Origin: a virus
Length of the DNA stretch: 64,000 bases
IMG/VR virus record: IMGVR_UViG_3300032030_000058
Span: 9,733 to 73,732 of that record
Direction: 5' to 3' (one strand)
The position numbers and the translations under genes are program-made. The notes beneath the pieces were generated by a model that ran no database searches, was not told the DNA's origin, and was given only the letters and a program-made list of their open reading frames with translations. Below, piece by piece: positions 23,925-57,493 of this stretch (the first letter of the stretch is position 1; every line of letters begins with the position of its first letter).

Positions 23925-23933
23925 TTCAAAAAA

Positions 23934-23968: not shown

Positions 23969-24761
23969 TCTTAGAATTAATAGCACGGTTACGCCAGCTC
24001 TGCATCAACTTCCTGGTTCTTCTCATATCCGTCTTCATCTGCAATGGTAAACTCGCATCACCAAAACTCTTCTTCACCACCTGCATCAATTTTAAACGGT
24101 CCCTGTAGAAGCGATACTGTTGAACCTCATACGAAATATATTCCTGAGCCGAAACACGCCTTAAACGGCCGATTTCAGCGAAAGAAACAGGAATCAATCT
24201 GTGGCGACAGTTCTTACGTGTGCATAGGTATGGCGGCTGAAGCATCACTTCGTCCACACTTAGTAACCCGGCGTTAAATATATATGCCTTCTCTTCATCT
24301 GAATACTCAGCGTTCTTTTTATAATAAATTCTGCCCTGATACGCAGCGTGGTCTTTAGCTGGATCTGTGAACTCCGTGCAATAGTAGAACTTTGAATCCC
24401 CCTGAAGAACATCCACGAGCTCTTCATGCTTCTTACGGTACTCGATATTATCCACAACATCGTTCTTGATCTTCTCCAGCATCGGGGTATCATCTCTAAG
24501 CACGGCATATATCGATGCGGCGCGATCATCTGCATCAACTTTCCGGGCTGCACCAGCTACGGTATGTTTGTAGAAATTCATGGCAAATAACCAGAGCGAG
24601 TGCCGCTCATTATCGTTCAGATGCTGAACATTCTGGATGATCTTCTTCACCTGACGCATCACTGATCTTTTATCAGCACGGTTAAGTACGCTAGATGTGA
24701 TCACCGCCACGATCTTTAGCTCTGCATTATATATTAAATTCTTATAATACCCTGTGTTCAT
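23964..24761 (-). CDS. hypothetical protein, possible MuF-like minor head protein (follows the portal)
   Basis: 265 aa, GC-richer codon usage shared with the portal gene; the position after the portal parallels SPP1 gp6-gp7. Confidence 0.35.
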   Translation of the reverse strand: MNTGYYKNLIYNAELKIVAVITSSVLNRADKRSVMRQVKKIIQNVQHLNDNERHSLWLFAMNFYKHTVAGAARKVDADDRAASIYAVLRDDTPMLEKIKNDVVDNIEYRKKHEELVDVLQGDSKFYYCTEFTDPAKDHAAYQGRIYYKKNAEYSDEEKAYIFNAGLLSVDEVMLQPPYLCTRKNCRHRLIPVSFAEIGRLRRVSAQEYISYEVQQYRFYRDRLKLMQVVKKSFGDASLPLQMKTDMRRTRKLMQSWRNRAINSKK

Positions 24762-36610: not shown

Positions 36611-36705
36611 ACATATTTAATTATATATTACTTTGAAAATAAAATAAAACATATTATAATATGTATATAGTTGCAAACGGGAATTGGCCTCGGCCGATTC
36701 TTTTT

Positions 36706-37017
36706 TTATTTATTGGGATATATCTCGCCAGCTTCAGGATCGAACACAAGCCTATTCTTATTTAAGTTATCCAAGAACGCGCCGATTTTCATTAATGTGT
36801 CACTGCGTAGCGCGTCATATTCTTTATTGTATACAAAAATATATTCTTTAATTTTGTTTTGATAAACAATCGTGCCGATGAAATAGTTTTTCTTTTTGTA
36901 AATCGTTTTATCTTTTCTGCGTGAAAAAACAAAAATGACGTTATTGATATCTTCTCTTGGTGGCCTTGTCATTTTTCCTGGGACAAAATCTAAATATTCA
37001 CTGGTAAGTCCGTTCAT
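36706..37017 (-). CDS. hypothetical protein
   Basis: 103 aa, ATGA-coupled to upstream gene. Confidence 0.45.
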   Translation of the reverse strand: MNGLTSEYLDFVPGKMTRPPREDINNVIFVFSRRKDKTIYKKKNYFIGTIVYQNKIKEYIFVYNKEYDALRSDTLMKIGAFLDNLNKNRLVFDPEAGEIYPNK

Positions 37018-37304
37018 AATAATACCTCTTTCAATAAATCATATTCTTCTTGGGTTTTACAACGATAAACTTGTTGCCCATTTATTAAAATATAATAAGC
37101 AATTTCATCTTCACCAAAGTTTTTTCTTGTTTTAAAACTAATACCACCAATAGTTGGCAACATAAATGTCTTAAAAATATCTAGTGCTTTGAGTTCTTGC
37201 TCAATGATATTAGCCCATTTATTGTTACAATTTTGAGTAAAAATATCAGCTTCTGTATCTGCTATTATTTTTAAGTTCTCTAATGCCTCTAAACCTTTAC
37301 TCAT
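37014..37304 (-). CDS. paralog family B protein (ELKALDI...EEYDLLKEVLL)
   Basis: 96 aa, shares internal ELKALDIFK and C-terminal QEEYDLLKEVLL with five other ORFs. Confidence 0.55.
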   Translation of the reverse strand: MSKGLEALENLKIIADTEADIFTQNCNNKWANIIEQELKALDIFKTFMLPTIGGISFKTRKNFGEDEIAYYILINGQQVYRCKTQEEYDLLKEVLL

Positions 37305-37437
37305 TTTCTTTCTCCTTATCTTTAATTATTTTATAAAAAACTTTTGCAAAAAAATCTCCAATTATATTATGAATAACGAGTAATCCAAATAGTGAAATGA
37401 ACACTATAAAAAGCCATAATGGTATTTCTACAATCAT
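37300..37437 (-). CDS. possible 45 aa membrane peptide
   Basis: ATGA-coupled to both neighbours; hydrophobic core. Confidence 0.3.
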
Positions 37438-37778
37438 AACAATTCCAAATCTCCTTTTTCGTTCAATAATTTGTATTTTTTTCCAAACCTATCAGTAAAA
37501 ATATGAATTTCTTTAACTTTTAGCGAAGGAATATCTAACCATTTTCTTTCTTCATGTTTTATCATTACATTTCCATCACATAAACAAGGAAGAATATATT
37601 TTATTTGTCCGTTGTATTCAACTTCAAACCATGTTCCATAATAATTGCTAAATACTTGAACAAACTTAACTTTTGTTCCTTTAGGACAAATAAGAGGATA
37701 TTGGCATCCTGTATTATAAAACCATCTTTCATTTTCGGTTTCTATCGTAACATATTTAAAATCTTCTAAATTAAACAT
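37434..37778 (-). CDS. hypothetical protein
   Basis: 114 aa ORF ending KGDLELL. Confidence 0.5.
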   Translation of the reverse strand: MFNLEDFKYVTIETENERWFYNTGCQYPLICPKGTKVKFVQVFSNYYGTWFEVEYNGQIKYILPCLCDGNVMIKHEERKWLDIPSLKVKEIHIFTDRFGKKYKLLNEKGDLELL

Positions 37779-38191
37779 AATTTTCCTTCTTCATTCATTT
37801 TGGCGACATATTTCAAACCCCATTCAGTCCAAATTGCTGCATAGATTATCATGCCATTTTTAATATCATCTAATTGTGATTGTGATAATTTTTTAGGCAT
37901 CTTAATAATCATTGGTTTTGTGCCGTTGTCCCACACATATTCATCACATAATTCTGCGATGGAATGAGCGGTTTTTACCACGTCACTGTCCCAGACACAA
38001 TCCATAGAACGACCACCTAATTCATCATATTCTATATGTTCGCCTTTATCTTCATCAAAATAATAAATACAATAGGCACCTTCTTCGCCAACAACATCGT
38101 CTTTATTATATTCAATAGAAGATACAACATTTGGAATCATTCCGTATATTTTGTTTTTAGTTTTTACATAAATGTTCATGCTGCAACACAC
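37766..38191 (-). CDS. paralog family A protein
   Basis: Contains SIAELCDEY and C-terminal YAAIWTEWGLKYVAKMNEEGKL. Confidence 0.55.
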   Translation of the reverse strand: MCCSMNIYVKTKNKIYGMIPNVVSSIEYNKDDVVGEEGAYCIYYFDEDKGEHIEYDELGGRSMDCVWDSDVVKTAHSIAELCDEYVWDNGTKPMIIKMPKKLSQSQLDDIKNGMIIYAAIWTEWGLKYVAKMNEEGKLCLI

Positions 38192-38318
38192 TCCCTTACT
38201 CTTTTTCTGTTTCTTACTATTCGATAGGCCGCTTCAATTTCTTCTTCACTTAACGCTTCCAATAAATCAGCAAGCTCTAATACCGCGGCATTTTTAATTT
38301 TTTCATCATTTTCGTTGT

Positions 38319-38660
38319 TCATAACAATTCCCAATCTCCTTTATCGTTCATTTTTGCTACATATTTCAAACCCCATTCAGTCCAAATCGCACCATAGATT
38401 TCTTTTATAAAATCGTTCCTTACTTTGTTATAACAATTTCTTTCACTTTTCATCGACCTATAACTTGTTCTTTCCCAAATACCTATTTCTGTAATTAACA
38501 CAAACTTATCACACAAATCTTCAATAGTGTCGGCTTGGGCAATAATTTCGTCATTTGATATTATTATCTCTTGAGCGATAAGTGTTTCTAATTCAAGTGT
38601 TGACATTTCATCTCTAAAACTTTTTAGTATTCTTTCGTCTTTCGTTCTAACGTATTTCAT
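38319..38660 (-). CDS. paralog family A protein
   Basis: ADTIEDLCDKF ... YGAIWTEWGLKYVAKMNDKGDWELL. Confidence 0.55.
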   Translation of the reverse strand: MKYVRTKDERILKSFRDEMSTLELETLIAQEIIISNDEIIAQADTIEDLCDKFVLITEIGIWERTSYRSMKSERNCYNKVRNDFIKEIYGAIWTEWGLKYVAKMNDKGDWELL

Positions 38661-38992
38661 AGTAGTTCTAATTCTCCTTTATCATTCATTCTCGCGACAT
38701 AGATAAGGCCCTTGTTCTCGACATGAATTGCTCCATAAACAGGACTTTCCGGATATTTTAATTTTTGCTCTTTTAATCTTGTTAAGTCTGTGTGATCAAA
38801 TTTTAAGATGAAATCCTTGCAGCCCTTATTTCGTTTGATTTTGATAAAACAATCGCATAGTTTTTCGATGGAATCAGCTCTAGCAATAATTTTGCTCGAT
38901 TTAAAATCACCATTTTCTTGATAAAGATATTCTGTCATTGTTTTATCTTGTAATGGAAAAATATGTCCATCTTCTGTTCTTATTAAACTCAT
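38657..38992 (-). CDS. paralog family A protein
   Basis: ADSIEKLCDCF ... YGAIHVENKGLIYVARMNDKGELELL. Confidence 0.55.
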   Translation of the reverse strand: MSLIRTEDGHIFPLQDKTMTEYLYQENGDFKSSKIIARADSIEKLCDCFIKIKRNKGCKDFILKFDHTDLTRLKEQKLKYPESPVYGAIHVENKGLIYVARMNDKGELELL

Positions 38993-39393
38993 ACTAGCAC
39001 TGCCTTTCCTAATAGATTCATATCATAACCACTCTCGATGAATTGAACAGTTAAGTTATGATTCACTCGATTTCCTAGTTTCTCATAAATGTATTGATAG
39101 TCGTCATGATTAAAATGAGTGTCTAACATATAATTGATAAAACGTTCTATTTTTCTTCTTAGCGTATCTTCTCCAAACCAGTGATTATCAGCCACAAAGA
39201 ATGACAACCACTCTAAGCATTTGCATTTAAATTCTAGTTCGGTTTCGACATCTTCTAAGCGAAAATAAGCATTTAGTTTTGGAGCAATAATTATTTCATT
39301 GTGGTTGTTAATAAATACTCTTAATCCTTGTGGATTGCAAATTGCTTTGTTTATTAAATTTTGAACTTCTGGCGTTCTCATAATAATTTCCAT
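38989..39393 (-). CDS. hypothetical protein
   Basis: 134 aa ORF. Confidence 0.5.
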   Translation of the reverse strand: MEIIMRTPEVQNLINKAICNPQGLRVFINNHNEIIIAPKLNAYFRLEDVETELEFKCKCLEWLSFFVADNHWFGEDTLRRKIERFINYMLDTHFNHDDYQYIYEKLGNRVNHNLTVQFIESGYDMNLLGKAVLV

Positions 39394-39704
39394 CCCCCTT
39401 CTTTATTCATTTCAGCAACATATTTTAATCCGTTAGCGGTCCAAATAGCTCCATAGATATAAAAACCACTAACCAACATTTTTAATAATTCAGATTGTCT
39501 TAATTTACCAAATTGCAATTTTGTGTAAATTTTATAACTGCCATGTTTCACAGTCACATAACGATTGAGCAGTTCATCAACTGTATCTGCGCTTTTATAA
39601 TGTCCCCCTATACATACTTCATTTGGTTTTAAGTTATAGTAGGTGTCTTTAACAATCAAGCCACGCACATCTATGATTCTGTCCTGATACTTGACATAGT
39701 TCAT
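39378..39704 (-). CDS. paralog family A protein
   Basis: ADTVDELLNRY ... YGAIWTANGLKYVAEMNKEGGWKLL. Confidence 0.55.
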   Translation of the reverse strand: MNYVKYQDRIIDVRGLIVKDTYYNLKPNEVCIGGHYKSADTVDELLNRYVTVKHGSYKIYTKLQFGKLRQSELLKMLVSGFYIYGAIWTANGLKYVAEMNKEGGWKLL

Positions 39705-40201
39705 TAATAACGATATCTCCTTTTAAATATCACTCTGTCCTTTAACAACTTCTCGATAAACTCAGGATCACAATCATATAATGTTTGGAAATTATAATGT
39801 GCATCTTGCATCGGTGAATTCACGAACAGAATCGCGGCATCTTCATTATTTTTATCGATACTGACACAGATTTGGGCCGCTTCAAATTCTTTTCTAATTT
39901 CATCGGTCATGACTAAAGAACATTTTGTTTTTTGGTCCGGTTGTAGTTCTTCCTTAAATTCAAAACCGGAAAAATCCTCTTCACGTTCTTTTGTTGTCGC
40001 TTCTTCATAACAATGTTCTAAAAAACGAACACACTGAACAAAAAGTGGATTGTCCTCTTTTAATGTGACAGGGTGAGCAAAGATTTTAACTTCGTTGTCC
40101 TCGTCGGAATAAAATTGGAATCCATGCTCTAAAAGAAGCTCTGGATGTTTTTTAAATTTGTAAATTAATTGATATACGTAAGTAGTCTTTTTAGTTTTCA
40201 T
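39704..40201 (-). CDS. hypothetical protein
   Basis: 165 aa ORF. Confidence 0.5.
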   Translation of the reverse strand: MKTKKTTYVYQLIYKFKKHPELLLEHGFQFYSDEDNEVKIFAHPVTLKEDNPLFVQCVRFLEHCYEEATTKEREEDFSGFEFKEELQPDQKTKCSLVMTDEIRKEFEAAQICVSIDKNNEDAAILFVNSPMQDAHYNFQTLYDCDPEFIEKLLKDRVIFKRRYRY

Positions 40202-40455
40202 ACAATTTCATATCTCGCTTTCTCTGCTAATAATTTTAAGTCTTTTTGCATGTCCCTGTATAGTTTGTAGATGTGGGACATATCATTGATATCAAATAGA
40301 TTTTTTAACGGTTTTAAGAACCCGATAATTTTTTTCTTATTGGTATAAAAGACAATGTGTGTTTCCGCTAACGGATCGTCACGAAGAATATCAATGACTT
40401 CTTCACATTTTAATATGGTATAACCCATTTCGGTTACAGTATCATAGAAGTTCAT
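40198..40455 (-). CDS. hypothetical protein
   Basis: 85 aa ORF. Confidence 0.5.
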   Translation of the reverse strand: MNFYDTVTEMGYTILKCEEVIDILRDDPLAETHIVFYTNKKKIIGFLKPLKNLFDINDMSHIYKLYRDMQKDLKLLAEKARYEIV

Positions 40456-40457
40456 TT

Positions 40458-40805
40458 TTAATCACCAATAATGCCGTATAATTGCACATATTGAGCGTTT
40501 AAATTTTTAGACATTTCATAGGATAGTTCTGGCTCGTAACGATAAATTACATCGCCGTTCATTAACTGTAATTCGATGCCGACATAATTTGCCATTTTTC
40601 CGCCTTGGCTGACATATACACCGTCCGGTCCATATTCAGCCCAACCTCTGATGTGATAATACTTTGTGTCTGTGATCTGAGAATAGACTAAAGCATAGTA
40701 ATAGGTCTTTGAGCCGGTGACCATTTGGTTTCCACCCGGACCTTTTACATTCTCACATGATGTTAATAACATTAGTGGCAATAATGCTAATAATAATTTT
40801 TTCAT
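40458..40805 (-). CDS. lipoprotein
   Basis: Signal peptide MKKLLLALLPLMLLTSC with lipobox LTSC. Confidence 0.6.
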   Translation of the reverse strand: MKKLLLALLPLMLLTSCENVKGPGGNQMVTGSKTYYYALVYSQITDTKYYHIRGWAEYGPDGVYVSQGGKMANYVGIELQLMNGDVIYRYEPELSYEMSKNLNAQYVQLYGIIGD

Positions 40806-40807
40806 TT

Positions 40808-41062
40808 TTAAATTTCCTCCAAATGCTTTTTAATGTATTCGTTCCATTTTCCTTCAAAATGTTTCATTTCAAGATATCGATCGTTGGCTTCTTTTTCGTT
40901 TGCTATAACACCGAATCCACCGCCGAAGAAATAGATGGCAAAGATTATTCTTTCGCCTATATAGGCCGCTTCGGTTTTAGCCACAAAACAGAGCACTAAC
41001 AAGATAGTAGATGTAATTAAGAATGTGACAATCGGAGCTTTTGTATATGACCAGATTCTCAT
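40808..41062 (-). CDS. small membrane protein
   Basis: 84 aa with two hydrophobic helices. Confidence 0.5.
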   Translation of the reverse strand: MRIWSYTKAPIVTFLITSTILLVLCFVAKTEAAYIGERIIFAIYFFGGGFGVIANEKEANDRYLEMKHFEGKWNEYIKKHLEEI

Positions 41063-41086
41063 AATAATTCCTCTTTTAATAATTGC

Positions 41087-41449
41087 TTAGATTTCTTTAA
41101 CTTCATCTAAACGATAGAATCCATCAAGTTCGAATTCAGGAGCCATAAGAGCATAATCGAAGCCGATTTTCATATCTTCAGGAAGTTCTTCGAATTGCTT
41201 TTTCATTTCGATATCTGTAATCACACCCCTGGCATGATAAACATTCTTTTCTTTGTCGAATGAAATATCAATTTCGGTTTCGTATTGAACTCCTGGTTGA
41301 ATATAATCATCGCTTTGGGCCGTTTTATTTAAGGCTTCTTCAAAATGATTTTTGATTAAAGCAGTAATTTTGCTTTTGTCTTTAATGATGCCGATCGTTG
41401 AACGTTCTTCAAAATCTTCATAGAACGCGAATGTTAGTAATGTTTTCAT
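41087..41449 (-). CDS. hypothetical protein
   Basis: 120 aa ORF. Confidence 0.5.
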   Translation of the reverse strand: MKTLLTFAFYEDFEERSTIGIIKDKSKITALIKNHFEEALNKTAQSDDYIQPGVQYETEIDISFDKEKNVYHARGVITDIEMKKQFEELPEDMKIGFDYALMAPEFELDGFYRLDEVKEI

Positions 41450-41850
41450 AATAAATCCTCCTTATTAAAAGCCCATGTAACCTTATAATCTTTTATAAAA
41501 TATTGTGGCATTCCTTTTGATTTGTAAGTGAAATACCATCCATCATGTTCGTCATATCCAAATGTTAAATATGAACGACTATGGTAAGTATATCCTCTAA
41601 TCCCTTGTGTGTTTTTGACTAGAATACCATGACTACTTTTTAATGTCGCTAATATCGTATGAAGATCAAATTCGATATCTTCTTCATCATCTTCTAATTG
41701 ACCAAGTTTTTGTTGTCCTAAAAACAAACTATTTAACTCTCTTTGATTCCCACAATTATCAGTTATACATGAATTAGAATTATCTTTTTTAATTCTATAA
41801 AAGCCTGTTTCTAGTCCAATTATATTAGTTTCTTTTTCTGTATATCTCAT
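41446..41850 (-). CDS. hypothetical protein
   Basis: 134 aa ORF. Confidence 0.5.
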   Translation of the reverse strand: MRYTEKETNIIGLETGFYRIKKDNSNSCITDNCGNQRELNSLFLGQQKLGQLEDDEEDIEFDLHTILATLKSSHGILVKNTQGIRGYTYHSRSYLTFGYDEHDGWYFTYKSKGMPQYFIKDYKVTWAFNKEDLL

Positions 41851-42209
41851 AACAATTCCAATTCTCCTTTCTCATTCATTTTAGCGACATAAATTAAACC
41901 TTTATCGGTATAGATTGAACCCATTATTTGCCCAATTTCTTTGCAACGAATATCATAATTGCCTAAAAGTCTGTGTGTTTTAGATAAAGCAAATGTTATT
42001 CCATCTTTGTGAGAAATCTTATAATAATCACGATTATCAATATCGACAAACTCGTCACACAATTCTTCAATGGTGTCGGCAGACTTAATTATACAGCCTT
42101 CAAAATCTATACCGTTGTCTTGCAAATCAGCAACTTGTTCGCAGTGTTTTTTATAACTAACAATATATTCTTGCTCATAAAGACTGTCGTAAACTCTAAC
42201 GTATTTCAT
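41847..42209 (-). CDS. paralog family A protein
   Basis: Start at ATG 42207-42209 (MKYVRVYD) after AAGAGGTG; ADTIEELCDEF ... GSIYTDKGLIYVAKMNEKGELELL. Confidence 0.55.
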   Translation of the reverse strand: MKYVRVYDSLYEQEYIVSYKKHCEQVADLQDNGIDFEGCIIKSADTIEELCDEFVDIDNRDYYKISHKDGITFALSKTHRLLGNYDIRCKEIGQIMGSIYTDKGLIYVAKMNEKGELELL

Positions 42210-42388
42210 AGCAACACCTCTTTTACTAAGTCTTCTTTTTTCTTTTCGTGAGAATCGCATAATGAACACATAAAGCATTCTCCATACTCCTCACAAACCC
42301 AACCTTTTTCAGGAGCATAATAACTATGTTTACAAGTATGTTTGCATTTGCTATCTTTCATGAACGGCATGTTGATACATCTTTCCAT
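42206..42388 (-). CDS. small Cys-rich protein ending LVKEVLL
   Basis: 60 aa with CKHTCKH...CEEYGECFMCSLC. Confidence 0.4.
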   Translation of the reverse strand: MERCINMPFMKDSKCKHTCKHSYYAPEKGWVCEEYGECFMCSLCDSHEKKKEDLVKEVLL

Positions 42389-42516
42389 CCTTCATCAGTT
42401 ATTATTTCTGTCTTAATACTTTTGTATTGACCTTGCAAGAATTCAACTCCTCTTCGTGAATACAGTATTCTAACTGTTCCATCATTCATATAGAGAATAA
42501 ATCTTATTGTTGGCAT
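42358..42516 (-). CDS. possible 52 aa ORF
   Basis: ATG embedded in the KEVLLCQQ stop region of the upstream gene; no independent support. Confidence 0.25.
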   Translation of the reverse strand: MPTIRFILYMNDGTVRILYSRRGVEFLQGQYKSIKTEIITDEGWKDVSTCRS

Positions 42517-42830
42517 AATAATACCTCTTTTAATAGATCGTATTCTTCTTTTGTAAAAACACTGTTTTCCTCATAAGGGGGCATTGGTTCGTCAGCACTC
42601 TTAACAATTCTTCTAATAATGTCTAGTGCTTTTAATTCCTTGTAATCTTGAAACACTTGTTCCGGATGAATAAGACGTGGCTTTAGAGCTTCATATTCTC
42701 CAAGAACATTTTCAATGATGCTAAAAGAGCCTATAATGAATCTTCTATCTAATCCATTCTTTGTGTATGACAAAACAAAATCTTTTAATTGTTTTGATAC
42801 ATCTAACGGTGTCATTTTTTCATTTTCCAT
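42504..42830 (-). CDS. paralog family B protein
   Basis: ELKALDIIRRI ... TKEEYDLLKEVLL. Confidence 0.55.
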   Translation of the reverse strand: MENEKMTPLDVSKQLKDFVLSYTKNGLDRRFIIGSFSIIENVLGEYEALKPRLIHPEQVFQDYKELKALDIIRRIVKSADEPMPPYEENSVFTKEEYDLLKEVLLCQQ

Positions 42831-42842
42831 AGCAAATCCCCC

Positions 42843-43001
42843 TTATTTCTTTTGTTTTGGAATTACGACATAGACATCGCCGAACTTTCTCACTTCGGTT
42901 TTGCCATAGTTCTCTTTCTTGCACATACAAGCAAGTGCAGCTTCAAATGTTTTAAATTGTTCCCCAGTAATTAATAAATAATTTTCTAATTGTTTATCCA
43001 T
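42843..43001 (-). CDS. small hypothetical protein (52 aa)
   Basis: GGAGGAG RBS 4 nt before ATG 42999-43001. Confidence 0.45.
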   Translation of the reverse strand: MDKQLENYLLITGEQFKTFEAALACMCKKENYGKTEVRKFGDVYVVIPKQKK

Positions 43002-43146
43002 AATCTCCTCCTTATTTTACTAGCATTTTTAATTATTAATTTTACATCTAATTTAGAATTGTTTTTGACCTCTCTTTGTATCATAAACTCCTTAAAGTAA
43101 GGTAATAGTTGATGATATACTAAATCCCCGTATTTGTCGTAATCGA

Positions 43147-43467
43147 TCACAACAGTTCCAATTCCCCTTTCTCATTCATTTTTGCAACAGGTTCTAATCT
43201 CATAGCGCCATTATCTAATTCAATCCAAATTGCGCCATAGATAGTGTCATTTTTATCTGTGTAGAAATATTTCATTTCTTCAAAGTCCTTTTCTAATTCA
43301 GTTGCAGTCTTAGGTCTTCTAAATCTATAAGGAGCAACTAATATAAACTCGTCGCATAATTCTTCAATGGTATCGGCTTGTTTGATAATTTCATAAGTTT
43401 TAAATTGCTCAATGACAAAATCTTTTTCAATGTCAAATATTCCGTAGTTTGTTCTAATATATCTCAT
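43147..43467 (-). CDS. paralog family A protein
   Basis: ADTIEELCDEF ... YGAIWIELDNGAMRLEPVAKMNEKGELELL. Confidence 0.55.
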   Translation of the reverse strand: MRYIRTNYGIFDIEKDFVIEQFKTYEIIKQADTIEELCDEFILVAPYRFRRPKTATELEKDFEEMKYFYTDKNDTIYGAIWIELDNGAMRLEPVAKMNEKGELELL

Positions 43468-43652
43468 AACGAAACCTTTCTCTCCATTAAAATAACAAAA
43501 TCAAGTCTGTCACTATCATTGTATGTTTTCCATTCGTGTATCTGGACAATATACCAACCTTTTTCGTTTTCATCTTTTAACCAACTATTAAAGTTATAAA
43601 CAATCATATTTCTTGCTCTTTCTATCTTTTGTTCTTTCATAATAATTCCCTC

Positions 43653-43871
43653 TTAATTCATTGGATATTCAGATTTATCCATGATGAAAATTTCAACAGT
43701 ATATAAATCTCCTTCTTTAGCCATAATTTTAATACAACCGTCGAAGTTCTTCAAAAAATCTGTTAAACAAGTTTCATGCACTTGAATAATTTTTTGTTCT
43801 CCGTTTGCTGCATTCATATCTCTGTTTTCCATCACTTTCTTTAAATGATGTTTTCGATAATTTGGATTCAT
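43653..43871 (-). CDS. hypothetical protein
   Basis: 72 aa, own promoter (TTGACA 43922-43927 on the minus strand) and GGAGGA RBS. Confidence 0.5.
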   Translation of the reverse strand: MNPNYRKHHLKKVMENRDMNAANGEQKIIQVHETCLTDFLKNFDGCIKIMAKEGDLYTVEIFIMDKSEYPMN

Positions 43872-43898
43872 ATTTATTCCTCCTTGTTTCTTGCCTAT

Positions 43899-43927
43899 AT
43901 ACTATTACAAAAATAAAAATGTGTCAA
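43899..43927 (-). promoter_or_regulatory. minus-strand promoter with conserved UP element (copy 1)
   Basis: Minus strand reads caaaattattttaaaaaatatATTGACAcatttttatttttgtaa-TAGTAT; ~50 bp near-identical to the copy at 60349-60405. Confidence 0.55.
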
Positions 43928-43965
43928 TATATTTTTTAAAATAATTTTGTAAAAAAAAGATTCTA

Positions 43966-44412
43966 TTAAAAGAATCCATAATTGCTGCCGTTTGGCCAGT
44001 GCCTTCTTCTGTTCTTGATATTGAAGTTTAACAATCCGGCTCTTTGTAAGATTTCGCGGCAACGAATACAAACTTCAACATCTCTTAACACTTTAATTGT
44101 GAAAATCTGTCCCTTTTCATCATCAGTTCCAGAAAATTCACCAAGAGCTTTTAAGCCTTCATTATATGTATATTTGGCTTGCACAATAATAGCATCTTTC
44201 CATTTTTCTAATTGAAATGGCGTCATTCTGTCCCATTTATAATTCCTGAACGATACAGTATCGATCCAATCCATAAGATGGTCTGTGACATCTTCTAAAA
44301 AATCTTCTGCGCTAAGGCTCTCATTAAAAGAACCTTCAAGAGCATCTCTTAAATCAAATCCGCCCTTAGCAGAGTTCTTAAATTCATCAGGAGTTACATA
44401 CACTTTTGCCAT
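43966..44412 (-). CDS. hypothetical protein
   Basis: Start at internal ATG 44410-44412 (MAKVYVTP) after GAGGAA; the annotated upstream extension overlaps the neighbour. Confidence 0.5.
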   Translation of the reverse strand: MAKVYVTPDEFKNSAKGGFDLRDALEGSFNESLSAEDFLEDVTDHLMDWIDTVSFRNYKWDRMTPFQLEKWKDAIIVQAKYTYNEGLKALGEFSGTDDEKGQIFTIKVLRDVEVCIRCREILQRAGLLNFNIKNRRRHWPNGSNYGFF

Positions 44413-44422
44413 AGATTTTTCC

Positions 44423-44713
44423 TCACATTCTATTATATATTTCAGACATAGCATCGGCAAGTAATTTTGAGATATCTGTGTTATACACACCAATACTAAA
44501 TTGCACGAAGAAAATATAAGTCGCATCAGCATCTTCATCAACCATAGTTAGCTGCATAAGGCGAGTTTTTTGCGAGTATCTAATTTCATAATCAGGTAAT
44601 TCTTTGGCTAAATGTTCCAAATATTCCCTAACTTGTTTTTCTTCTTTAACAGTCGCATTCAGATTCTGTTGGTATATCTTCATAATAAATTTCAGGCTCC
44701 TTCCAATAAGCAT
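44423..44713 (-). CDS. hypothetical protein
   Basis: 96 aa ORF. Confidence 0.45.
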   Translation of the reverse strand: MLIGRSLKFIMKIYQQNLNATVKEEKQVREYLEHLAKELPDYEIRYSQKTRLMQLTMVDEDADATYIFFVQFSIGVYNTDISKLLADAMSEIYNRM

Positions 44714-45083
44714 TTAAATAGTTCGGGAACGGTTCCGCTAAATACCATCCCACAACCGGTTCTTTTACATATTTACACGCTTCCCAGTATATATCACTGT
44801 CTTTTGTGATTTCAATTGGTATAGTTCGATCAGCAAGCGGAAACACTTCAAATGTGGATTTTAATCGATTATTATTCTCTTTAACGAAAAACGGATTTTT
44901 AGACAAGGAAAGATTTTCATCGACTATTATTCCGTCCTTATATCGTTTTGTGGCTAATTCGACAAGAAAAACGCTATTACGTGTAACGCGGCATACTTCA
45001 AAAATAACTTTTATGCCCGCGAAACACAATATATAAATATCTTGCGTATATACACGATATTGATTTGTAATCACTTCTTTCAT
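44646..45083 (-). CDS. hypothetical protein
   Basis: 145 aa ORF. Confidence 0.45.
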   Translation of the reverse strand: MKEVITNQYRVYTQDIYILCFAGIKVIFEVCRVTRNSVFLVELATKRYKDGIIVDENLSLSKNPFFVKENNNRLKSTFEVFPLADRTIPIEITKDSDIYWEACKYVKEPVVGWYLAEPFPNYLNAYWKEPEIYYEDIPTESECDC

Positions 45084-45310
45084 ATTCCTATCTTTAACTG
45101 ATAATCTGTTACGACTATGCGTTTAATTTTTTTGTTCTTTAAATCCTCAGCGATTAAATTATACCATATTGATTTGAAAAATAATTCACCGGTTTCATCA
45201 TCGTATATAGTTAATTTTGTAGCGCCGTTTTCTAATGTATCAATAAGGTCCTTAATAGTCATATTATTTTCCAGTGGAACCAAATCCGCCTTCTCCTCGC
45301 TCTTCGCCAA
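45080..45310 (-). CDS. hypothetical protein
   Basis: 76 aa ORF. Confidence 0.45.
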   Translation of the reverse strand: MAKSEEKADLVPLENNMTIKDLIDTLENGATKLTIYDDETGELFFKSIWYNLIAEDLKNKKIKRIVVTDYQLKIGI

Positions 45311-45701
45311 GTTCCAAAACTGGTTCAGCTAGAACGACTGGCTCGACAACAATTTGGCAAATCTTGTCGCCACGTTTGAAATCATATCTATTATTTGTTG
45401 TGTTGATAAAATACGCTTTGATTTCGCCGCGATAACCACTATCAATTGTTCCAATCTGAGTTATAATTCCTTTTATATTCATACTAGAACGTGGACGGAT
45501 GGTGGCCATATAACCATCAGGAACCTCTAATCCAAAGCCTAACGGAAATAATAGCTGGTTATATTGTGTGAGTCCATATGTAGTATCTAATGGATTTAAG
45601 GCAAAATCCTCTTGTGCAAAGCAATCAATACCAGCATCGTTATAATGTGCTCTAACTGGTGGAATTAAGTCTTCTCTAAATTTAATTAATTTGATTTTCA
45701 T
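45264..45701 (-). CDS. dut: dUTP diphosphatase (dUTPase)
   Basis: AGIDCFA, RPRSSMNIKG, GTIDSGYRGE, ERGEGGFGSTG motifs. Confidence 0.9.
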   Translation of the reverse strand: MKIKLIKFREDLIPPVRAHYNDAGIDCFAQEDFALNPLDTTYGLTQYNQLLFPLGFGLEVPDGYMATIRPRSSMNIKGIITQIGTIDSGYRGEIKAYFINTTNNRYDFKRGDKICQIVVEPVVLAEPVLELGEERGEGGFGSTGK

Positions 45702-45704
45702 ATT

Positions 45705-45896
45705 TTATTCTCCGATCTTTTCTGTTACGTATTCATATTCCATACTTTGTCTAATTGTTTTTTTGCAATATGGACAAATCATATATTCCATGTCCCTAAA
45801 GCCAGGAATTTGTTCTTCTTCGTATACCCTAAATTTTTTATTACATTTGGGGCAAATCTCAATATAACTGAAATTGTTAATGTCTTTTAAGTTCAT
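45705..45896 (-). CDS. zinc-ribbon protein
   Basis: CPKCNKKF...CPYCKK. Confidence 0.5.
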   Translation of the reverse strand: MNLKDINNFSYIEICPKCNKKFRVYEEEQIPGFRDMEYMICPYCKKTIRQSMEYEYVTEKIGE

Positions 45897-46062
45897 TTTT
45901 TAGCTCCTTATGATTATTACACACATCACAGAAATTAAACCTCAAACAAGCGCTGCAACATCTCACATGTCGCTTTTTTTGACAAAGTTCTATTTCTCTT
46001 CTTAAAGATTCCAATAGCTCATATTCATCTAAACTCATTTCTCGTATTCTCCCTTTATGCAA
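45877..46062 (-). CDS. Cys-rich small protein
   Basis: CCSACLRFNFCDVCNNH. Confidence 0.45.
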   Translation of the reverse strand: MHKGRIREMSLDEYELLESLRREIELCQKKRHVRCCSACLRFNFCDVCNNHKELKNELKRH

Positions 46063-51623: not shown

Positions 51624-51699
51624 TGGCAACGATGCCTGGGCTCGAACCAGGGAATATTAGAGTCAAAGTCTAATGCCTTACCAACTTGGCTACATCGTT
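51624..51699 (-). tRNA. tRNA-Gln (anticodon UUG)
   Basis: 76 nt; acceptor AACGATG/CATCGTT, anticodon stem TTAGA/TCTAA with loop CTTTGAC, T-arm CCTGG-TTCGAGC-CCAGG, encoded CCA. Confidence 0.85.
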
Positions 51700-51786
51700 A
51701 TAATGATGGCGAAGTTACCCAATTACCGACTTTCATAGAACTAATTAGCGTTCTCCAGTTTTCATCGCTTCGCCTGGGATAAATTT

Positions 51787-51873
51787 TGGCGGAAAGCCAG
51801 GGACTCGAACCCTGAATGCCTTTCGGCACAACGGTTTTCAAGACCGCCTGAATACCAATTATCACAGCCCTCC
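51787..51873 (-). tRNA. tRNA-Ser (anticodon UGA), class II
   Basis: 87 nt; anticodon loop CTTGAAA, long variable arm GCCGAAAGGC, T-arm CAGGG-TTCGAGT-CCCTG, encoded CCA. Confidence 0.8.
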
Positions 51874-51874
51874 G

Positions 51875-51962
51875 TGGCGGAAGGTATAGGATTCGAACCT
51901 ATGCGCCCATCGGGCCTAGCGATTTAGCAAACCGCCCCCTTCAGCCAACTTGGGTAACCTTC
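51875..51962 (-). tRNA. tRNA-Ser (anticodon GCU), class II
   Basis: 88 nt; perfect acceptor GGAAGGT/ACCTTCC, anticodon loop TTGCTAA, long variable arm, T-arm ATAGG-TTCGAAT-CCTAT, CCA. Confidence 0.8.
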
Positions 51963-51965
51963 CGT

Positions 51966-54863: not shown

Positions 54864-55228
54864 TTTCTGGCTCCTTTCTTTGCATTTCGCAATATGTTTT
54901 GGAACTTAGACATGTCCTCTAAACTAATCATATCTAGCATATTACTTGAATAGAAGAATTCATCCTTGCTAGGGTTCCCGTTCTCGTCCAATTTCAGAAC
55001 AATACGTGGCAACTCATAAGTCACGATTATTGACATTTCTCCTGTTTCTTGATCCTCTACTACGCGCGTTTCCTTAATCTTAAATTTAACGTGCGCAAGT
55101 AAGGACTTGGTTTTGGCTAATTCTTCACTGTCTTTTTTCAGTTTCTTATATTCTTCGCTTTCAACTAATTCGACTAGGTGATTAATTTTCTCTTCAATGG
55201 CTAATAATTGTTTGGTTCTTTTTAACAT
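54860..55228 (-). CDS. hypothetical protein
   Basis: 122 aa ORF. Confidence 0.5.
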   Translation of the reverse strand: MLKRTKQLLAIEEKINHLVELVESEEYKKLKKDSEELAKTKSLLAHVKFKIKETRVVEDQETGEMSIIVTYELPRIVLKLDENGNPSKDEFFYSSNMLDMISLEDMSKFQNILRNAKKGARK

Positions 55229-55229
55229 A

Positions 55230-55481
55230 TTAGAGCTCCTTTATCATTTTGATGATAAGTTCTTTTTCCGCTTCGTTTTTTGGCATAATTCTGAATAAAT
55301 CACAACCAATAATATCGAGTGGATTCTCGCCTAATGCTGTTCCGATTTTAGCGGCTAAACTAGCACTGCAACGATGATTTTCGGCGTAGCCGACTGCATG
55401 GATTGCAATGCCGATTTTTTCCGCTAATTGTTTTTGAGTAAGACCATGTTTTACTCTGTAAAAGGCAATATTGTTACTCAT
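55230..55481 (-). CDS. XRE-family HTH transcriptional regulator
   Basis: FYRVKHGLTQKQLAEKIGIAIHAVGYAE helix-turn-helix; own promoter (TTGACA 55527-55532 on the minus strand). Confidence 0.7.
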   Translation of the reverse strand: MSNNIAFYRVKHGLTQKQLAEKIGIAIHAVGYAENHRCSASLAAKIGTALGENPLDIIGCDLFRIMPKNEAEKELIIKMIKEL

Positions 55482-55550
55482 ATAAATCTCCTTTCTTAGT
55501 TATATATTCTCATAATAATTTAAATATGTCAATAATTATTTTCATTTTAA

Positions 55551-55796
55551 TTATAAATCTTTGCTATTTATTTCAATGATTGTGCCGCACTTGGTGCATC
55601 TATATTTAACCATGCCTAATGAGTCACTTCCAATCCATTTAAGAAGGTCGCTTCCACATTCTGGACACGTAGGCCGTGTATATGGTTTTGAGTTGATACA
55701 ACAACCGATTTCAGCGTGTTGTTCCATTAAATCGATGAACTGTTTAATTTCTTCTGGTGATCCAGTAATTATATAATCACGATATTGTAGAATCAT
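55551..55796 (-). CDS. zinc-ribbon protein
   Basis: CPECGSD...CTKCG. Confidence 0.5.
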   Translation of the reverse strand: MILQYRDYIITGSPEEIKQFIDLMEQHAEIGCCINSKPYTRPTCPECGSDLLKWIGSDSLGMVKYRCTKCGTIIEINSKDL

Positions 55797-56338
55797 AATA
55801 GTTCCTCTTTCTTTTCATATTTCCATTCATATCCATACATTGTTTTGAATTTTCCTCTTGCACAAGCTGCTATGTTACCTTCCGAATAGCCAAGTTTTCT
55901 AGTTACTTCTCTTACACCTTCATATCTAGCAATAACTTTGCCATCTTTGATTTGTAAGATTGCTTTTTGGTTTTTCTGTTTTGCACATTCTATGGTTTTT
56001 CTAAAGTTGATTTGCAGCCCAGTATTGTGCGCATGTAACATATTTTCTTTTCTATCGTTCCATTCCAGGTTGCTAACAGTATTGTTATATTTATTGCCAT
56101 CGATATGATTCACTTCTTCTTTGTTTAAAGGATTAGGAATAAAGGCTTGTCCTACCAGTCTATGGATTTTGAATAATGTTTTCTTACCGTTGATTTTCAA
56201 AGTAATAACTTGGTAGATTCCATAATTATTATTCAGTTTTAATATTCTTCCTGTTTGTGCGTTTCTTACTCGCCCATAGCTGCTTATTTGATATATTCCG
56301 TTAGAGTTAGGTATATCTTTCCATTCTTCTTGGTTCAT
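55793..56338 (-). mobile_element. HNH homing endonuclease with N-terminal NUMOD4 motif
   Basis: EEWKDIPNSNGIYQISSYGRVRN (NUMOD4) and NHIDGNKYNNTVSNLEW...N (HNH_3 core). Confidence 0.85.
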
Positions 56339-56706
56339 AGTAATTCCTCCCTTGTTAATGCCCAGGTTTTGCCATAGTCTTTATAATAAAATCTAAATCT
56401 TTTTTTCAGGTTGGCGTCCCAAACTTCTATTATATTTCTCAAAGTATAAACATGATAGTGACCTGCTTTTTTGATTTTTCCTTCTATGACAAAATACGGA
56501 ATTAAATTATTTATTTGCCATTCAAGAAATTTAACCAAAGGCATTTCAATTTTTTCTTCATAATCTTCTAATTGACCGAGTTTGTTAAGTGAATGTCTTA
56601 CATATTCGCCAATGACTAATGGTTTCAGTTCTTCATCAACGCTTTCATCGATAACAAGATTTATGTCATACCAACCATCTTCTCTTTTTTTGGTTCTTCT
56701 ATTCAT
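56335..56706 (-). CDS. hypothetical protein
   Basis: 123 aa ORF. Confidence 0.5.
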   Translation of the reverse strand: MNRRTKKREDGWYDINLVIDESVDEELKPLVIGEYVRHSLNKLGQLEDYEEKIEMPLVKFLEWQINNLIPYFVIEGKIKKAGHYHVYTLRNIIEVWDANLKKRFRFYYKDYGKTWALTREELL

Positions 56707-56915
56707 AATAATTTACCCCATTCTTTCTTATAAGTTTTTATAATGTTGAACTCATTATCTTTTGTGTTAACAAGCACAAACTTATTATCCACACACATAA
56801 TTGCTAAATCGCTATTGTTTTTAATTCTTTTTAATGCGCTGAAAATATCTTTGTAAATATCAGTAACATCTTCTAAATGTAAATCTTTCATTCTTCTACC
56901 TCCACATAGCACCAA
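56703..56915 (-). CDS. hypothetical protein
   Basis: 70 aa ORF. Confidence 0.45.
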   Translation of the reverse strand: MVLCGGRRMKDLHLEDVTDIYKDIFSALKRIKNNSDLAIMCVDNKFVLVNTKDNEFNIIKTYKKEWGKLL

Positions 56916-57493
56916 CTTCGAGGCGCTTTGGTTAATGGATAAGTATATTCATAACCACATTTTATGGGTTGAACAAGAACATCTTTTTCTTTATGAATGT
57001 CTTGTGCGAAATTATTTTTATAATATTTTCTCTTAAAACCTTTATAGAACTCACTCAATTCCTTTGGTGCATCAAAGATTTCTAGTTGTGAGATGTTAAT
57101 GGCATAACCTATATTTCCGTCGAGATATTTTTTGATTTCTTGTTTTGTTAAACAACTATTTTCAAATAAATTTTTTGGATTTTCTTCGTTTGGTGTCCAC
57201 CAAATAATTTCCACATTATCACAATAGAAACGAGCAACTACTTTGCCATTGTATTTAGAAATATATCTATGATTTTTATTAGAAAGAGTATGTTTTCTAT
57301 ATTTTCCAACAGAGTAATACCATTTGTTTGTTTTTTCATCTAATGTTAATTCTTGTTGATTATCTTTCGTGCAATAAATATATATCCAACCAACATAATC
57401 AATAGGGAACATTTTTCTAACTTCTTTTGTTTTAAGTCTGTTAAGAATATTTGCAACTGGTCTAGGGTGTATACTCATTAATATTGATCTCAT
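56888..57493 (-). CDS. hypothetical protein
   Basis: 201 aa ORF. Confidence 0.5.
   Translation of the reverse strand: MRSILMSIHPRPVANILNRLKTKEVRKMFPIDYVGWIYIYCTKDNQQELTLDEKTNKWYYSVGKYRKHTLSNKNHRYISKYNGKVVARFYCDNVEIIWWTPNEENPKNLFENSCLTKQEIKKYLDGNIGYAINISQLEIFDAPKELSEFYKGFKRKYYKNNFAQDIHKEKDVLVQPIKCGYEYTYPLTKAPRSWCYVEVEE

Follow-up and report, generated by a model that had tools for sequence, protein, structure and literature searches.

Hypervariable cassettes between conserved blocks in a family of small phage proteins, present in six copies at one locus

In gp38, the adhesin of T-even phages, hypervariable segments are flanked by conserved glycine-rich motifs (PMC3157838), and the hyperplastic regions of T4-like phages undergo modular shuffling mediated by PeSLs, which are intergenic stem-loops of the promoter/terminator type (PMC4122927). 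Both systems bear comparison with the locus described here, an array of six paralogous genes (family A) lying among the tightly packed small genes of a phage, in a window of 64,000 nucleotides (the whole stretch of viral DNA that was analysed). As far as can be read from their sequences, the six genes diverged long ago within their family, and their organization suggests that they may encode binders with different targets, involved in host interaction or counter-defence.

Six members of a large family without a name

An earlier note on this DNA had recognized the six ORFs as paralogs, and this observation is borne out: all are on the minus strand, with stops where the note had placed them (Table 1), and they align end to end, from an N-terminal M-x-Y-V/I-R-T through a middle ADTIEELCDEF to a C-terminal IYGAIWTxxGLKYVAKMNEKGELELL. 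Two of the starts need comment. The first gene had been begun at an upstream GTG, while the ATG at 38179 is the start indicated by the N-terminus of the family and also by the public gene call. For the fifth, the length of 143 aa that had been given came from an upstream ATG at 42278, and the coordinate proposed at the same time, 42209, is the family start.

Table 1. Position of the family A genes, of related ORFs and of junctions in the window
Feature	Position	Strand	Length	Remarks
Paralog 1	37766..38179	-	137 aa	hmmsearch E 1.9e-26; long V1 cassette
Paralog 2	38319..38660	-	113 aa	hmmsearch E 9.7e-34; AlphaFold2 pLDDT 77.6, pTM 0.65
Paralog 3	38657..38992	-	111 aa	hmmsearch E 1.1e-28; dN/dS 0.12
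Paralog 4	39378..39704	-	108 aa	hmmsearch E 1e-25; sole basic copy, pI 9.4
Paralog 5	41847..42209	-	120 aa	hmmsearch E 1.2e-34
Paralog 6	43147..43467	-	106 aa	hmmsearch E 4e-30; GTGA stop/start overlap
Look-alike ORF	37434..37778	-	114 aa	ends NEKGDLELL
Family C gene	41446..41850	-		contains LGQLEDDEE…DYKVTWAFNKEDLL; starts on paralog 5 stop codon, translationally coupled
Dual-use tail (example)	41847..41870	-		K-G-E-L-E-L-L-stop = AAA GGA GAA TTG GAA TTG TTA TGA
Equivalent junctions	38319-38342, 38657-38680, 39378-39401, 43147-43170	-
3.1-kb stretch	36611..39726	-	3.1 kb	holds paralogs 1 to 4 and the look-alike ORF

Membership was established with an outside profile, built from 115 homologues that do not come from the window and searched with hmmsearch against 987 window ORFs. 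The six paralogs scored E 1e-25 to 1.2e-34 and the next best ORF only 0.03, so that the six matches are far above chance; the profile (A3) is covered from position 1 to 112 in five of them, and from 3 to 112 in paralog 1. Each is a stand-alone protein of 100-145 aa with the same three-block architecture, except that the middle block is degenerate in paralog 4 (ADTVDELLNRY, without the conserved Cys), as are the N-terminus and the tail in paralog 1 (EEGKLCLI-TAG, without stop/start overlap). With paralog 2 as the reference of the alignments (A2 and A3), the blocks read MKYIRTKDG, IIKQADTIEELCDEFV and IYGAIWTDKGLIYVAKMNxKGELELL, and between them lie two hypervariable cassettes, V1 (residues ~10-37) and V2 (~56-87). 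The idea of a conserved scaffold carrying variable parts thus stands; that of highly divergent N-terminal halves stands only in part. The first nine residues are conserved, and there is no single variable half: the two cassettes are split by the conserved middle block and, both being hypervariable, they extend the variability outside the N-terminal half.

The contrast between core and cassettes is sharp: median pairwise identity, 0.73 in the core, falls to 0.18 in V1 and to 0.17 in V2; the cassettes, of 11-59 aa and 20-48 aa respectively, are usually unalignable between members. Across 121 diverse members, conservation reaches 90% or more at some 28 positions, of which many carry polar or charged residues, and one Cys is conserved as well; Y3, R5, T6, D43, T44, E46, E47, C49, D50, W92, T93, K102 and N104 are the strongly conserved polar residues of the core. 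Two AlphaFold2 models, of which that of paralog 2 was the first, reached a moderate overall confidence (the second with a pLDDT of 78.6), with 80-90 in the conserved blocks and 51-77 in the cassettes. Both give the blocks the same secondary-structure elements, and a beta-rich core is predicted to form from an N-terminal strand, a strand-helix-strand unit and a C-terminal hairpin with a final strand; in paralog 6 this hairpin has a five-residue insertion. Family A might also be understood as regulators or nucleic-acid binders of small size, with an SH3/KOW/Tudor-like barrel, that would tune phage or host gene expression and owe their sequence or partner specificity to the cassettes; we consider this quite improbable.

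The family is very large and has no name. An exhaustive search of representatives recovered homologues in their thousands, intact, stand-alone and with a constant length around 110 aa, and essentially no domain fusions among them; three longer proteins (P0145, P0146 and P0130), considered as fusions, look like mis-called starts or read-through. All homologues come from uncultured phage contigs and from MAGs, the latter being Firmicutes, at least one of them ruminal, and most phages have a single family A gene per 20-kb locus. Among 50,697 GenBank phage records, a near-identity search with the array DNA gave no match, nor did tblastn with family A members (E up to 1) or with families B and C; no family A member was found there in a cultured phage. 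Searches of Pfam, PHROGs, NCBIfam and PADLOC with the six proteins and 121 alignment members gave no match at curated threshold and none shared at E <=1e-3: PHROG matches were limited to single members at E 7e-4 or weaker, and PADLOC, which models defence proteins, had none for the six paralogs. Pfam DUF5678 matched 10 of the 121 members weakly (best E 7.7e-4, all under the gathering threshold), over residues 32-53 of the reference paralog, that is about 22 residues in the strand-helix of the middle block. A profile search of PDB sequences remained at a best E of 0.66, and Foldseek found nothing in BFVD at E <=1e-3. An antitoxin of the T4 Dmd type was considered and rejected, similarity to Dmd in both fold and sequence not being found. 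The literature gave nothing specific on family A, on DUF5678 or on rumen-phage paralog families.

Tails that also serve the next gene

The last seven codons of a typical family A gene appear in a different light when read as nucleotides. Their general form is AAA GGA GAn ... TTA TGA, and in paralog 5 it amounts to a Shine-Dalgarno-like AAAGGAGA followed, after a spacer, by an ATG that shares nucleotides with the stop. Codon choice is biased accordingly. Gly107 is encoded by GGA or GGG in 67 of 71 genes, whereas Gly89 and Gly96 together use these codons in 23 of 132 cases (Fisher p 1.5e-28); similarly, 62 of 68 genes have TA at the end of their last codon, a feature seen in 19 of 70 at Leu111 (p 2.7e-15). 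This bias shows the dual role of these codons, which also supply the next gene with its ribosome-binding site and overlapping start. Of 86 distinct family A genes, 73 have an ORF of 30 aa or more that begins on the overlapping ATG; in the array, the stop of paralog 3 overlaps the ATG of paralog 2, whose own stop overlaps the start of a 48-aa gene downstream. A family A gene therefore fits into a coupled operon without silencing its neighbour. The family C gene that follows paralog 5 (31% identical, E 1.4e-6, to another at 56335-56706) belongs to the commonest identifiable family downstream of family A genes elsewhere. As this amounts to only 10-12 of 77 downstream genes, 52 of which are singletons, a fixed two-gene A-C module was rejected.

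The same junction motif is found in unrelated genes, with tails such as KEVLL, KEDLL or REELL and an NTA-TGA overlap at 23 of 44 small-gene ends. This has a bearing on the look-alike ORF of Table 1, which resembles a seventh copy. It matches the family profile at E 0.2-1.1 only, and a pairwise hhalign comparison gives P 3.3e-4 and a probability of 38% over 50 columns, from LCD to the end. Its tail has the nucleotides of the generic junction (AAAGGAGAT-TTGGAATTGTT-ATGA) and is explained by the second function of such codons. This ORF is at best a degenerate seventh member. One might then ask whether the six genes themselves are a nucleotide-level artefact of repeated junction or recombination sequences, their ORFs not being functional proteins. 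The generic character of the last seven codons, the look-alike ORF, significantly similar in its tail alone, and a position-specific codon preference at several conserved positions would all agree with this. Against it, conservation is not confined to the last eight residues, three blocks being conserved across the whole of the six proteins; random family members compared with each other show synonymous sites close to saturation in the middle and C-terminal blocks (pS 0.70), so that what is retained is similarity at the protein level, with an omega of about 0.14; and neither thousands of intact homologues of constant length nor a predicted folded core would be expected. We regard such an artefact as extremely improbable. 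A practical warning for annotation follows from these tails: conserved C-termini such as KGELELL, KEVLL or KEELL partly mirror the signals from which the next gene is translated (its ribosome-binding site and start codon), and can give unrelated ORFs the look of paralogs.

Old divergence, purifying selection and almost free reassortment

The earlier note had seen in the locus a fast-diversifying tandem array, which would imply a recent duplication in this phage, with the N-terminal half evolving quickly under positive selection. The crowding of all six copies into 5.7 kb does invite this reading, as does the pair of neighbours in which the stop of one overlaps the start of the other, but the comparison with outside relatives makes it very improbable. 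The in-genome paralogs are among the most distant members of the family from each other: they rank 101st to 330th of about 330 hits and are 31-48% identical to the reference paralog, when the best outside relative of each paralog is 65-98% identical. The near-saturated synonymous sites of the middle and C-terminal blocks likewise speak for an old divergence. Recent duplication tracts are absent, the copies being linked by nothing but short nucleotide repeats, 62-91% identical; recent gene conversion among them was dropped as an explanation, long identical tracts being absent. Selection was measured on orthologous pairs, since synonymous sites are saturated among the six paralogs, and dN/dS was found to be 0.12-0.19, hardly a sign of rapid diversification. 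The core has a dN of 0.30 with saturated dS. Pooled over cassettes omega is 0.09-0.21, each cassette type being under purifying selection.

The 3.1-kb stretch has no counterpart at the same position in L075, the closest relative found (TerL 83% identical in amino acids), where the homologue of 39727-40244 sits 37 nt from TerL and an unrelated family A member is found at another position. We read this stretch as an indel within a hyperplastic region that lies immediately upstream of the gene for the large terminase. As to the lytic lifestyle assumed in the earlier note, no integrase was seen among the ORFs scanned (64 of the contig's 79 kb), but the window has two XRE-type HTH genes; an Rfam scan of it returned tRNAs only, and a promoter/terminator scan of the array gave counts no higher than the shuffled expectation.

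Individual genes tell where the exchanges occur. Paralog 3 has a counterpart of 97.9% nucleotide identity on L092/L093, with flanks unlike those of the window, and paralog 4 is 77% identical to P0006. Paralog 1 is 88% (amino acids) and 90% (nucleotides) identical to a gene on L090 in unrelated flanks, and dS between the two varies by segment, from 0 in V2 to 0.44 in the N-terminus with V1 and 2.3 in the C-terminal block. Paralog 5 and P0009 have unrelated V1 cassettes, but from the middle block onwards, up to the C-terminus, they are 93% identical; the nucleotide match of paralog 5 on L091 is restricted to the 3' 236 nt, beginning at the middle block. Whole and half family A genes are thus met in unrelated contexts, with breakpoints at the conserved blocks and at gene junctions. 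Over the best-scoring 317 family members, of 50,086 pairs only 6 have both cassettes in common, when 85 share V1 alone and 133 share V2 alone; one V2 class of 10 members, that of paralog 6 (APYRFRRPKTATELEKDFEEMKYFYTDKNDT), occurs with 10 different V1 classes. The variable parts act as discrete modules that recur in many combinations: V1 and V2 types recombine almost freely, and diversity arises by recombination. Hypermutation by a diversity-generating retroelement, which gives variants of equal length and uses a nearby template repeat differing mainly at adenines, was rejected: cassettes differ in length and are unalignable, a template repeat is missing, as 37300-43700 contains no long repeats that are nearly identical, and no reverse transcriptase was found among the window ORFs scanned, which were a part of all ORFs.

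Possible roles and comparison with known systems

The explanation that we tentatively prefer takes the six genes as ancient members of family A in which the conserved core would be a scaffold, or would dock onto something invariant, while V1 and V2 would supply binding specificity. The six combinations of cassettes would then give the phage a repertoire with which to meet variation in its host targets, the likeliest of these being factors of host defence or takeover. Such a repertoire is not the rule, since most phages have a single copy in a 20-kb locus. A more ambitious version is possible, if doubtful: a combinatorial binder system with hundreds of types per cassette, in which recombination at the built-in conserved blocks would assemble repertoires against shifting variants of host defences or factors, the C-terminal codons acting as a portable adaptor of translational coupling that permits insertion anywhere in an operon. 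Conservation of so many polar residues in the core would be explained no less well by a site that binds a conserved ligand or partner than by a passive scaffold. It may accordingly be the core that carries the function, by binding an invariant ligand or partner (nucleotide signal, metal, conserved host or phage protein), with V1 and V2 as tolerated surface inserts swapped to evade host sensors or competing phages, and the six copies as redundant or dosage variants rather than six specificities. The conserved positions, with their Cys, the low core dN relative to saturated dS and the single copy of most phages speak in its favour. Cassettes under purifying selection (omega ~0.1-0.2) and recurrent combinations are, however, unexpected for neutral filler; six sensor-exposed variants would raise the chance of detection, not lower it; and paralog 4, whose middle block lacks the conserved Cys as well as several acidic residues, nevertheless has an orthologue, the 77%-identical one. 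We consider this alternative unlikely, though of some weight.

If the preferred binder model is true, swaps of V1 or V2 between paralogs would transfer specificity, and if the cassettes target host defences or factors, family A would offer a map of the relevant protein surfaces, together with a library of variants supplied by nature. For a small non-structural protein it is an unusual way to evolve that cassettes under purifying selection reassort almost freely. The family is also a sizeable piece of the viral dark matter of gut and rumen.

Phage counter-defence genes (anti-CRISPR, anti-restriction, signal-sponge) form clusters in variable accessory regions and encode small, often acidic, stand-alone proteins; their distribution is patchy, they are sometimes present in several copies, and they usually lack annotation. 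Family A, with its small, often acidic stand-alone proteins in a variable accessory region, may be likened to them. Indirect searches (PDB sequences, BFVD, GenBank phages) gave no homology or fold similarity to characterized counter-defence proteins, and no Aca-like HTH regulator adjoins the family A genes. To our knowledge, known counter-defence families do not show a two-cassette combinatorial architecture.

It is with gp38 that this architecture finds a likeness, short conserved blocks there bounding hypervariable specificity segments and acting as crossover points at which segments are swapped between phages (PMC3157838). The counterpart in family A would be its three blocks bounding V1 and V2, which reassort near-independently; a role in specificity is what we infer. 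There is no similarity of sequence or fold between the two: gp38 is a tail-fibre adhesin of the virion, with a solved fold and a known role in receptor binding (PMC3157838), whereas family A proteins are small, mostly acidic, non-structural by genomic position and present in up to six copies. PeSL-mediated shuffling offers the other likeness: there, small accessory genes gather in the plastic intervals that separate core modules, and recombination at short, conserved sequences on their borders exchanges them as cassettes (PMC4122927). Family A corresponds to this in its whole genes set in unrelated flanks, its breakpoints at junctions and an array that is an indel with respect to the closest relative. 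Unlike a PeSL, however, the boundary of a family A gene lies inside the coding sequence, its KGELELL tail encoding the Shine-Dalgarno and the ATGA junction, and further crossover points are found within the gene.

A constant core with two variable cassettes

Family A, to which the six small paralogous proteins of the array belong, combines a conserved, folded core with two cassettes that are individually conserved and exchangeable, a mobility of genes or half-genes, and translational coupling through its tail. That the six ORFs form a family, as the earlier note had claimed, is now well established: all lie on the minus strand with the stops it had given, and they align with one another over their full length. 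A profile made of 115 homologues from elsewhere, every window sequence being excluded, recovers the six among the 987 six-frame ORFs of the window at E values of 1e-25 to 1.2e-34, while the next ORF scores 0.03, so that chance is no explanation for the resemblance. The start of paralog 1 is the ATG at 38179 (137 aa), in agreement with the public gene call, and not the GTG at 38191, and paralog 5 starts at 42209 (120 aa), as previously proposed.

Across 121 members, three near-invariant blocks, at residues 1-9 (MKYIRTKDG), 38-55 (IIKQADTIEELCDEFV) and 88-113 (IYGAIWTDKGLIYVAKMNxKGELELL), frame two cassettes, V1 (residues 10-37) and V2 (56-87), where there is zero consensus. Pairwise identity has a median of 0.73 for the core but of just 0.18 for V1 and 0.17 for V2, cassettes whose lengths are 11-59 aa and 20-48 aa, respectively. 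AlphaFold2 models of the reference paralog, paralog 2 (pLDDT 77.6), and of a 100-aa family member, P0053 (78.6), both display an N-terminal strand, a strand-short helix-strand unit in the middle block, a long C-terminal hairpin and a final strand. The conserved elements score about 80-90 in both, so that the models predict a fold for the C-terminal block; confidence is lower in the cassettes (51-77), as expected where the alignment is uninformative.

This is a new, unannotated family. When 5.8 billion proteins were searched with a profile, 3,847 clusters matched at E <= 1e-3, none with a Pfam domain, and in the best 120 of these the few source names present read merely 'hypothetical protein'. 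Exhaustive HMMER search of 1.84 billion 50%-identity representatives gave 2,165 members, 1,574 of them at E <= 1e-10; the 150 top-scoring ones listed are, with few exceptions, proteins that stand alone, measure 100-145 aa and terminate exactly at the family A C-terminus. The six paralogs and all 121 aligned members had no above-threshold match in Pfam, PHROGs, NCBIfam or PADLOC, the sole recurrent signal being a sub-threshold one to DUF5678, in 10 of the 121, which spans ~22 residues in the reference paralog. No relative was found among PDB sequences, nor any match, even at E <= 1, in 50,697 GenBank phage records. IMG/VR has the family in 60 viral contigs, about 9-160 kb in length, and in GTDB (one genome per species) its occurrence is restricted to MAG contigs with the labels Firmicutes, Erysipelotrichaceae, Bacilli, Clostridia or Acutalibacteraceae; an explicitly ruminal isolate stands behind two of the 11 GTDB loci.

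Gene junctions and the tail

The tail is written in the codons AAA GGA GAn TTG GAA TTG TTA TGA, and its DNA is an SD-like AAAGGAGA followed by a spacer and an ATG that overlaps the stop. The NTA-TGA ending occurs in 63 of the 73 distinct full-length family genes for which DNA was compared. At Gly107, 67 of 71 genes have GGA or GGG, whereas Gly89 and Gly96 together have one of these codons in 23 of 132 cases (Fisher p 1.5e-28). Similarly, a final codon in -TA is found in 62 of 68 genes, while the Leu codon before it has this ending in 19 of 70 (p 2.7e-15). When the set is widened to 86 genes by N-terminally incomplete members, 73 have an ORF of 30 aa or more that begins on the overlapping ATG. 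The downstream genes are diverse (10-12 from family C, a third small family, 7 from family A and 52 singletons), and the commonest identifiable gene starting on the family A stop codon belongs to family C.

The arrangement is a generic one at minus-strand gene ends in 36700-46000 and 55200-60300, where AAAGAGG or AAAGGAG is followed by about 8 nt and ATGA; NTA-TGA overlaps the next start at 23 of the 44 small-gene ends there. Unrelated window genes with this junction end in KEVLL, KEDLL, REELL or KEELL, so that a shared junction produces convergent C-terminal peptides, KGELELL included, in unrelated proteins, and such peptides can mimic paralogy. The worry, voiced in the earlier note, that a repeated nucleotide junction lies behind the common C-terminal block is hence justified for the last seven residues or so, and unfounded for the rest of the protein. 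That the family similarity as a whole should be a pure nucleotide artefact is scarcely credible, being contradicted by the data. The generic junction also accounts for the C-terminal NEKGDLELL of ORF 37434-37778, which is a look-alike or degenerate relic of family A: its E value with the family profile, 0.2-1.1, is not significant, and hhalign gives P 3.3e-4 with a probability of 38%.

Exchange of cassettes and origin of the array

Homologues often have one cassette in common and the other different. Two outside members, P0009 and P0023, are 88-93% identical to paralog 5 over everything from the middle block onwards, with an unrelated V1; the V2 of paralog 6 is common to P0010 and P0045, and that of paralog 3 to P0080. 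Over 50,086 pairs from 317 members, both cassettes are shared (>=60% identity) in six pairs, V1 is shared with V2 unrelated (<30%) in 85, and the reverse holds in 133. Single-linkage clustering at 50% resolves about 246 V1 and 244 V2 classes; in one V2 class, all 10 members differ in their V1 partner. In the DNA, paralog 3 recurs with 97.9% identity on contigs L092/L093, where the flanks differ and the downstream gene corresponds to window 56555-56713, and paralog 1 recurs with 90% identity on L090 amid unrelated flanks; the match of paralog 5 to L091 covers the last 236 nt only, from the middle block on. Between paralog 1 and its L090 counterpart, dS rises from 0 in V2 through 0.44 in N+V1 to 2.3 in the C-terminal block, and this unevenness places breakpoints within the gene.

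Nei-Gojobori dN/dS is 0.12-0.19 overall for orthologous pairs and 0.09-0.21, pooled, inside shared cassettes, which indicates, for these few pairs, that selection at the level of point mutations is purifying and not diversifying. Between random pairs the middle and C-terminal blocks have a pS of 0.70 against a dN of 0.30; the family is therefore old, and constraint on the protein has maintained these blocks. Among 73 diverse genes, positions in the conserved blocks prefer particular codons: TAC at Tyr3 (57 of 68), GCC at Ala42 (49 of 62; background 0.11), GAC at Asp43 (47 of 66), ACG at Thr6 and CTT at Leu97, with p-values that disregard the relatedness of the genes. This preference persists although synonymous divergence is near-saturated overall; nucleotide-level selection, in favour of recombination substrates or of translation, may be its cause. 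Two free-standing genes of homing-endonuclease type lie within the window and could contribute to local gene conversion.

Within this genome, the other copies share no more than 31-48% identity with the reference paralog, and in-genome paralogs take places 101 to 330 among about 330 family hits. Nucleotide repeats between the copies are short (62-91% identity). In most related loci, 20 kb contain a single copy; tandem pairs occur at about a dozen, two loci have three and one has five, six being reached, among the related loci compared, in this phage only. In L075, the closest relative found (TerL 83% identical), the homologue of window 39727-40244 sits just 37 nt from TerL, so that the 3.1 kb with four of the six copies is absent there, and an unrelated family A member is found downstream of TerL instead; phages with 49% TerL identity carry zero to two copies near TerL. 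Distant paralogs, closer relatives outside and the gap in L075 together place the array in a plastic region, where it was put together from old lineages. A recent expansion within the genome does not withstand these figures, and recent duplication combined with positive selection, contradicted by the data, is a very unlikely origin.

Coordinates of window features, with outside relatives and neighbours where indicated
Feature	Coordinates	Strand	Remarks
Paralog 1	37766-38179	-	closest outside relative P0008, 88%
Paralog 2	38319-38660	-	reference paralog
Paralog 3	38657-38992	-	closest outside relative P0004, 98%
Paralog 4	39378-39704	-	closest outside relative P0006, 77%
Paralog 5	41847-42209	-	closest outside relatives P0070, 65% full length; P0009, 93% over 81 aa
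Paralog 6	43147-43467	-	closest outside relative P0045, 67%
Conserved blocks with codon preference (examples)	42048-42080; 43345-43377
Family B	37014-37304; 42504-42830; 57490-57771; 58152-58472; 58469-58870; 59557-60054	-
Family C	41446-41850; 56335-56706	-	KLGQLEDxEE…DYGKTWALTKEEL
~190-aa neighbour (examples)	L001 11212-11751; L004 3557-4354		outside contigs
HNH_3 with NUMOD4 and I-HmuI-like domain	55793-56338	-	directly after family C gene
GIY-YIG with NUMOD1/NUMOD3	11120-12136	-	adjoins major head gene
ADP-ribosylglycohydrolase	6184-6987	-	Pfam E 2.8e-37
537-aa protein	7220-8833	-	ADP-ribosyltransferase-toxin-like C-terminal region, PHROGs E 8e-23
736-aa protein	28986-31196	-	RNA ligase PHROG over full length, E 1e-200
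SPFH/Band-7 domain protein	31256-32731	-	Pfam E 6e-23; between terminase and RNA-repair gene
Putative dUTPase (by its sequence)	45264-45701
tRNA genes Gln(ttg), Ser(tga), Ser(gct)	51624-51963	-	just upstream of primase gene
1,133-aa ORF	60580-63981	-
Plus-strand genes	16470-16931; 19307-20038; 22633-23268	+	the last with GP88 domain

Neighbouring genes, possible role and known systems

The window belongs to a phage, since it holds genes for a primase-polymerase, a helicase, an exonuclease, a large terminase, a portal and a major head protein. Its TerL shares just 24-28% identity with the TerL of cultured Firmicutes phages, and an identical 6.4-kb stretch occurs in L003, a contig assembled from another run. 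An island of plus-strand genes interrupts the otherwise minus-strand genome at about 14000-24000, where GC skew and AT skew also change sign. The 1,133-aa ORF has no match in PHROGs or Pfam; by eye, its sequence seems to contain internal repeats and much Asn, Ser and Thr. A fibre or receptor-binding protein is a possible identity, though the position upstream of the early small-gene cluster would be unusual for one.

A second multi-copy family of small proteins, family B, has six ORFs in the window, related at pairwise E values of 1e-5 to 5e-13 and marked by an N-terminal MSKxLEALExxK, an internal ALEIIKEK and a C-terminal EEYDLLKEVLL. It has no Pfam, PHROGs or GenBank phage match, and many rumen-type phage loci contain it alongside family A. 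Taken together, families B and C, the latter with no annotation found anywhere, occur close to family A at 51 of 75 loci. Ranking second among the neighbours of family A is a ~190-aa protein (32 loci), whose L001 representative carries a precomputed 'faint' ASCH flag. Window ORF 56888-57493, outside that cluster, resembles ASCH at its N-terminus by eye only, and a Pfam scan of it was negative. The 736-aa protein also matches polynucleotide kinase and phosphoesterase/phosphatase families and looks like an RNA-repair fusion; RNA-repair enzymes are a phage means of undoing tRNA cleavage by host anticodon nucleases. The adjoining genes of the ADP-ribosylglycohydrolase and the 537-aa protein, within or near the structural module, encode a putative writer/eraser pair. 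A Band_7 gene is near a family A gene also on the unrelated contig L092 (3765-4751).

The observation of the earlier note is confirmed, and its interpretation, anti-defence or host-specificity factors with a variable target-binding part on a conserved scaffold, is supported in part. We may understand V1 and V2 as surfaces that would bear specificity, the six different combinations making up a repertoire against variable targets, which most plausibly would belong to host defence or be targets of host takeover; we hold this reading tentatively, with slightly more doubt than belief. Its main rival, which we consider unlikely, would make the many conserved polar residues of the core the site where a single invariant partner is bound or acted upon, the cassettes being swapped for evasion. 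A regulatory role in binding nucleic acids appears decidedly improbable, in view of the acidic pI (family median 5.3) and of fold matches that are weak and inconsistent. In the role proposed here, family A would probably resemble the clusters of small counter-defence genes.

In its mode of diversification, family A follows the design of conserved motifs and hypervariable segments of the T-even gp38 adhesins (PMC3157838), and works similarly to the PeSL-mediated cassette exchange in the hyperplastic regions of T4-like phages (PMC4122927). It is nevertheless a member of neither system: its boundary elements are coding, and its protein is small, non-structural and without detectable relatives. 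The evolutionary mode of family A is a new variation on the known modular exchange of phages.
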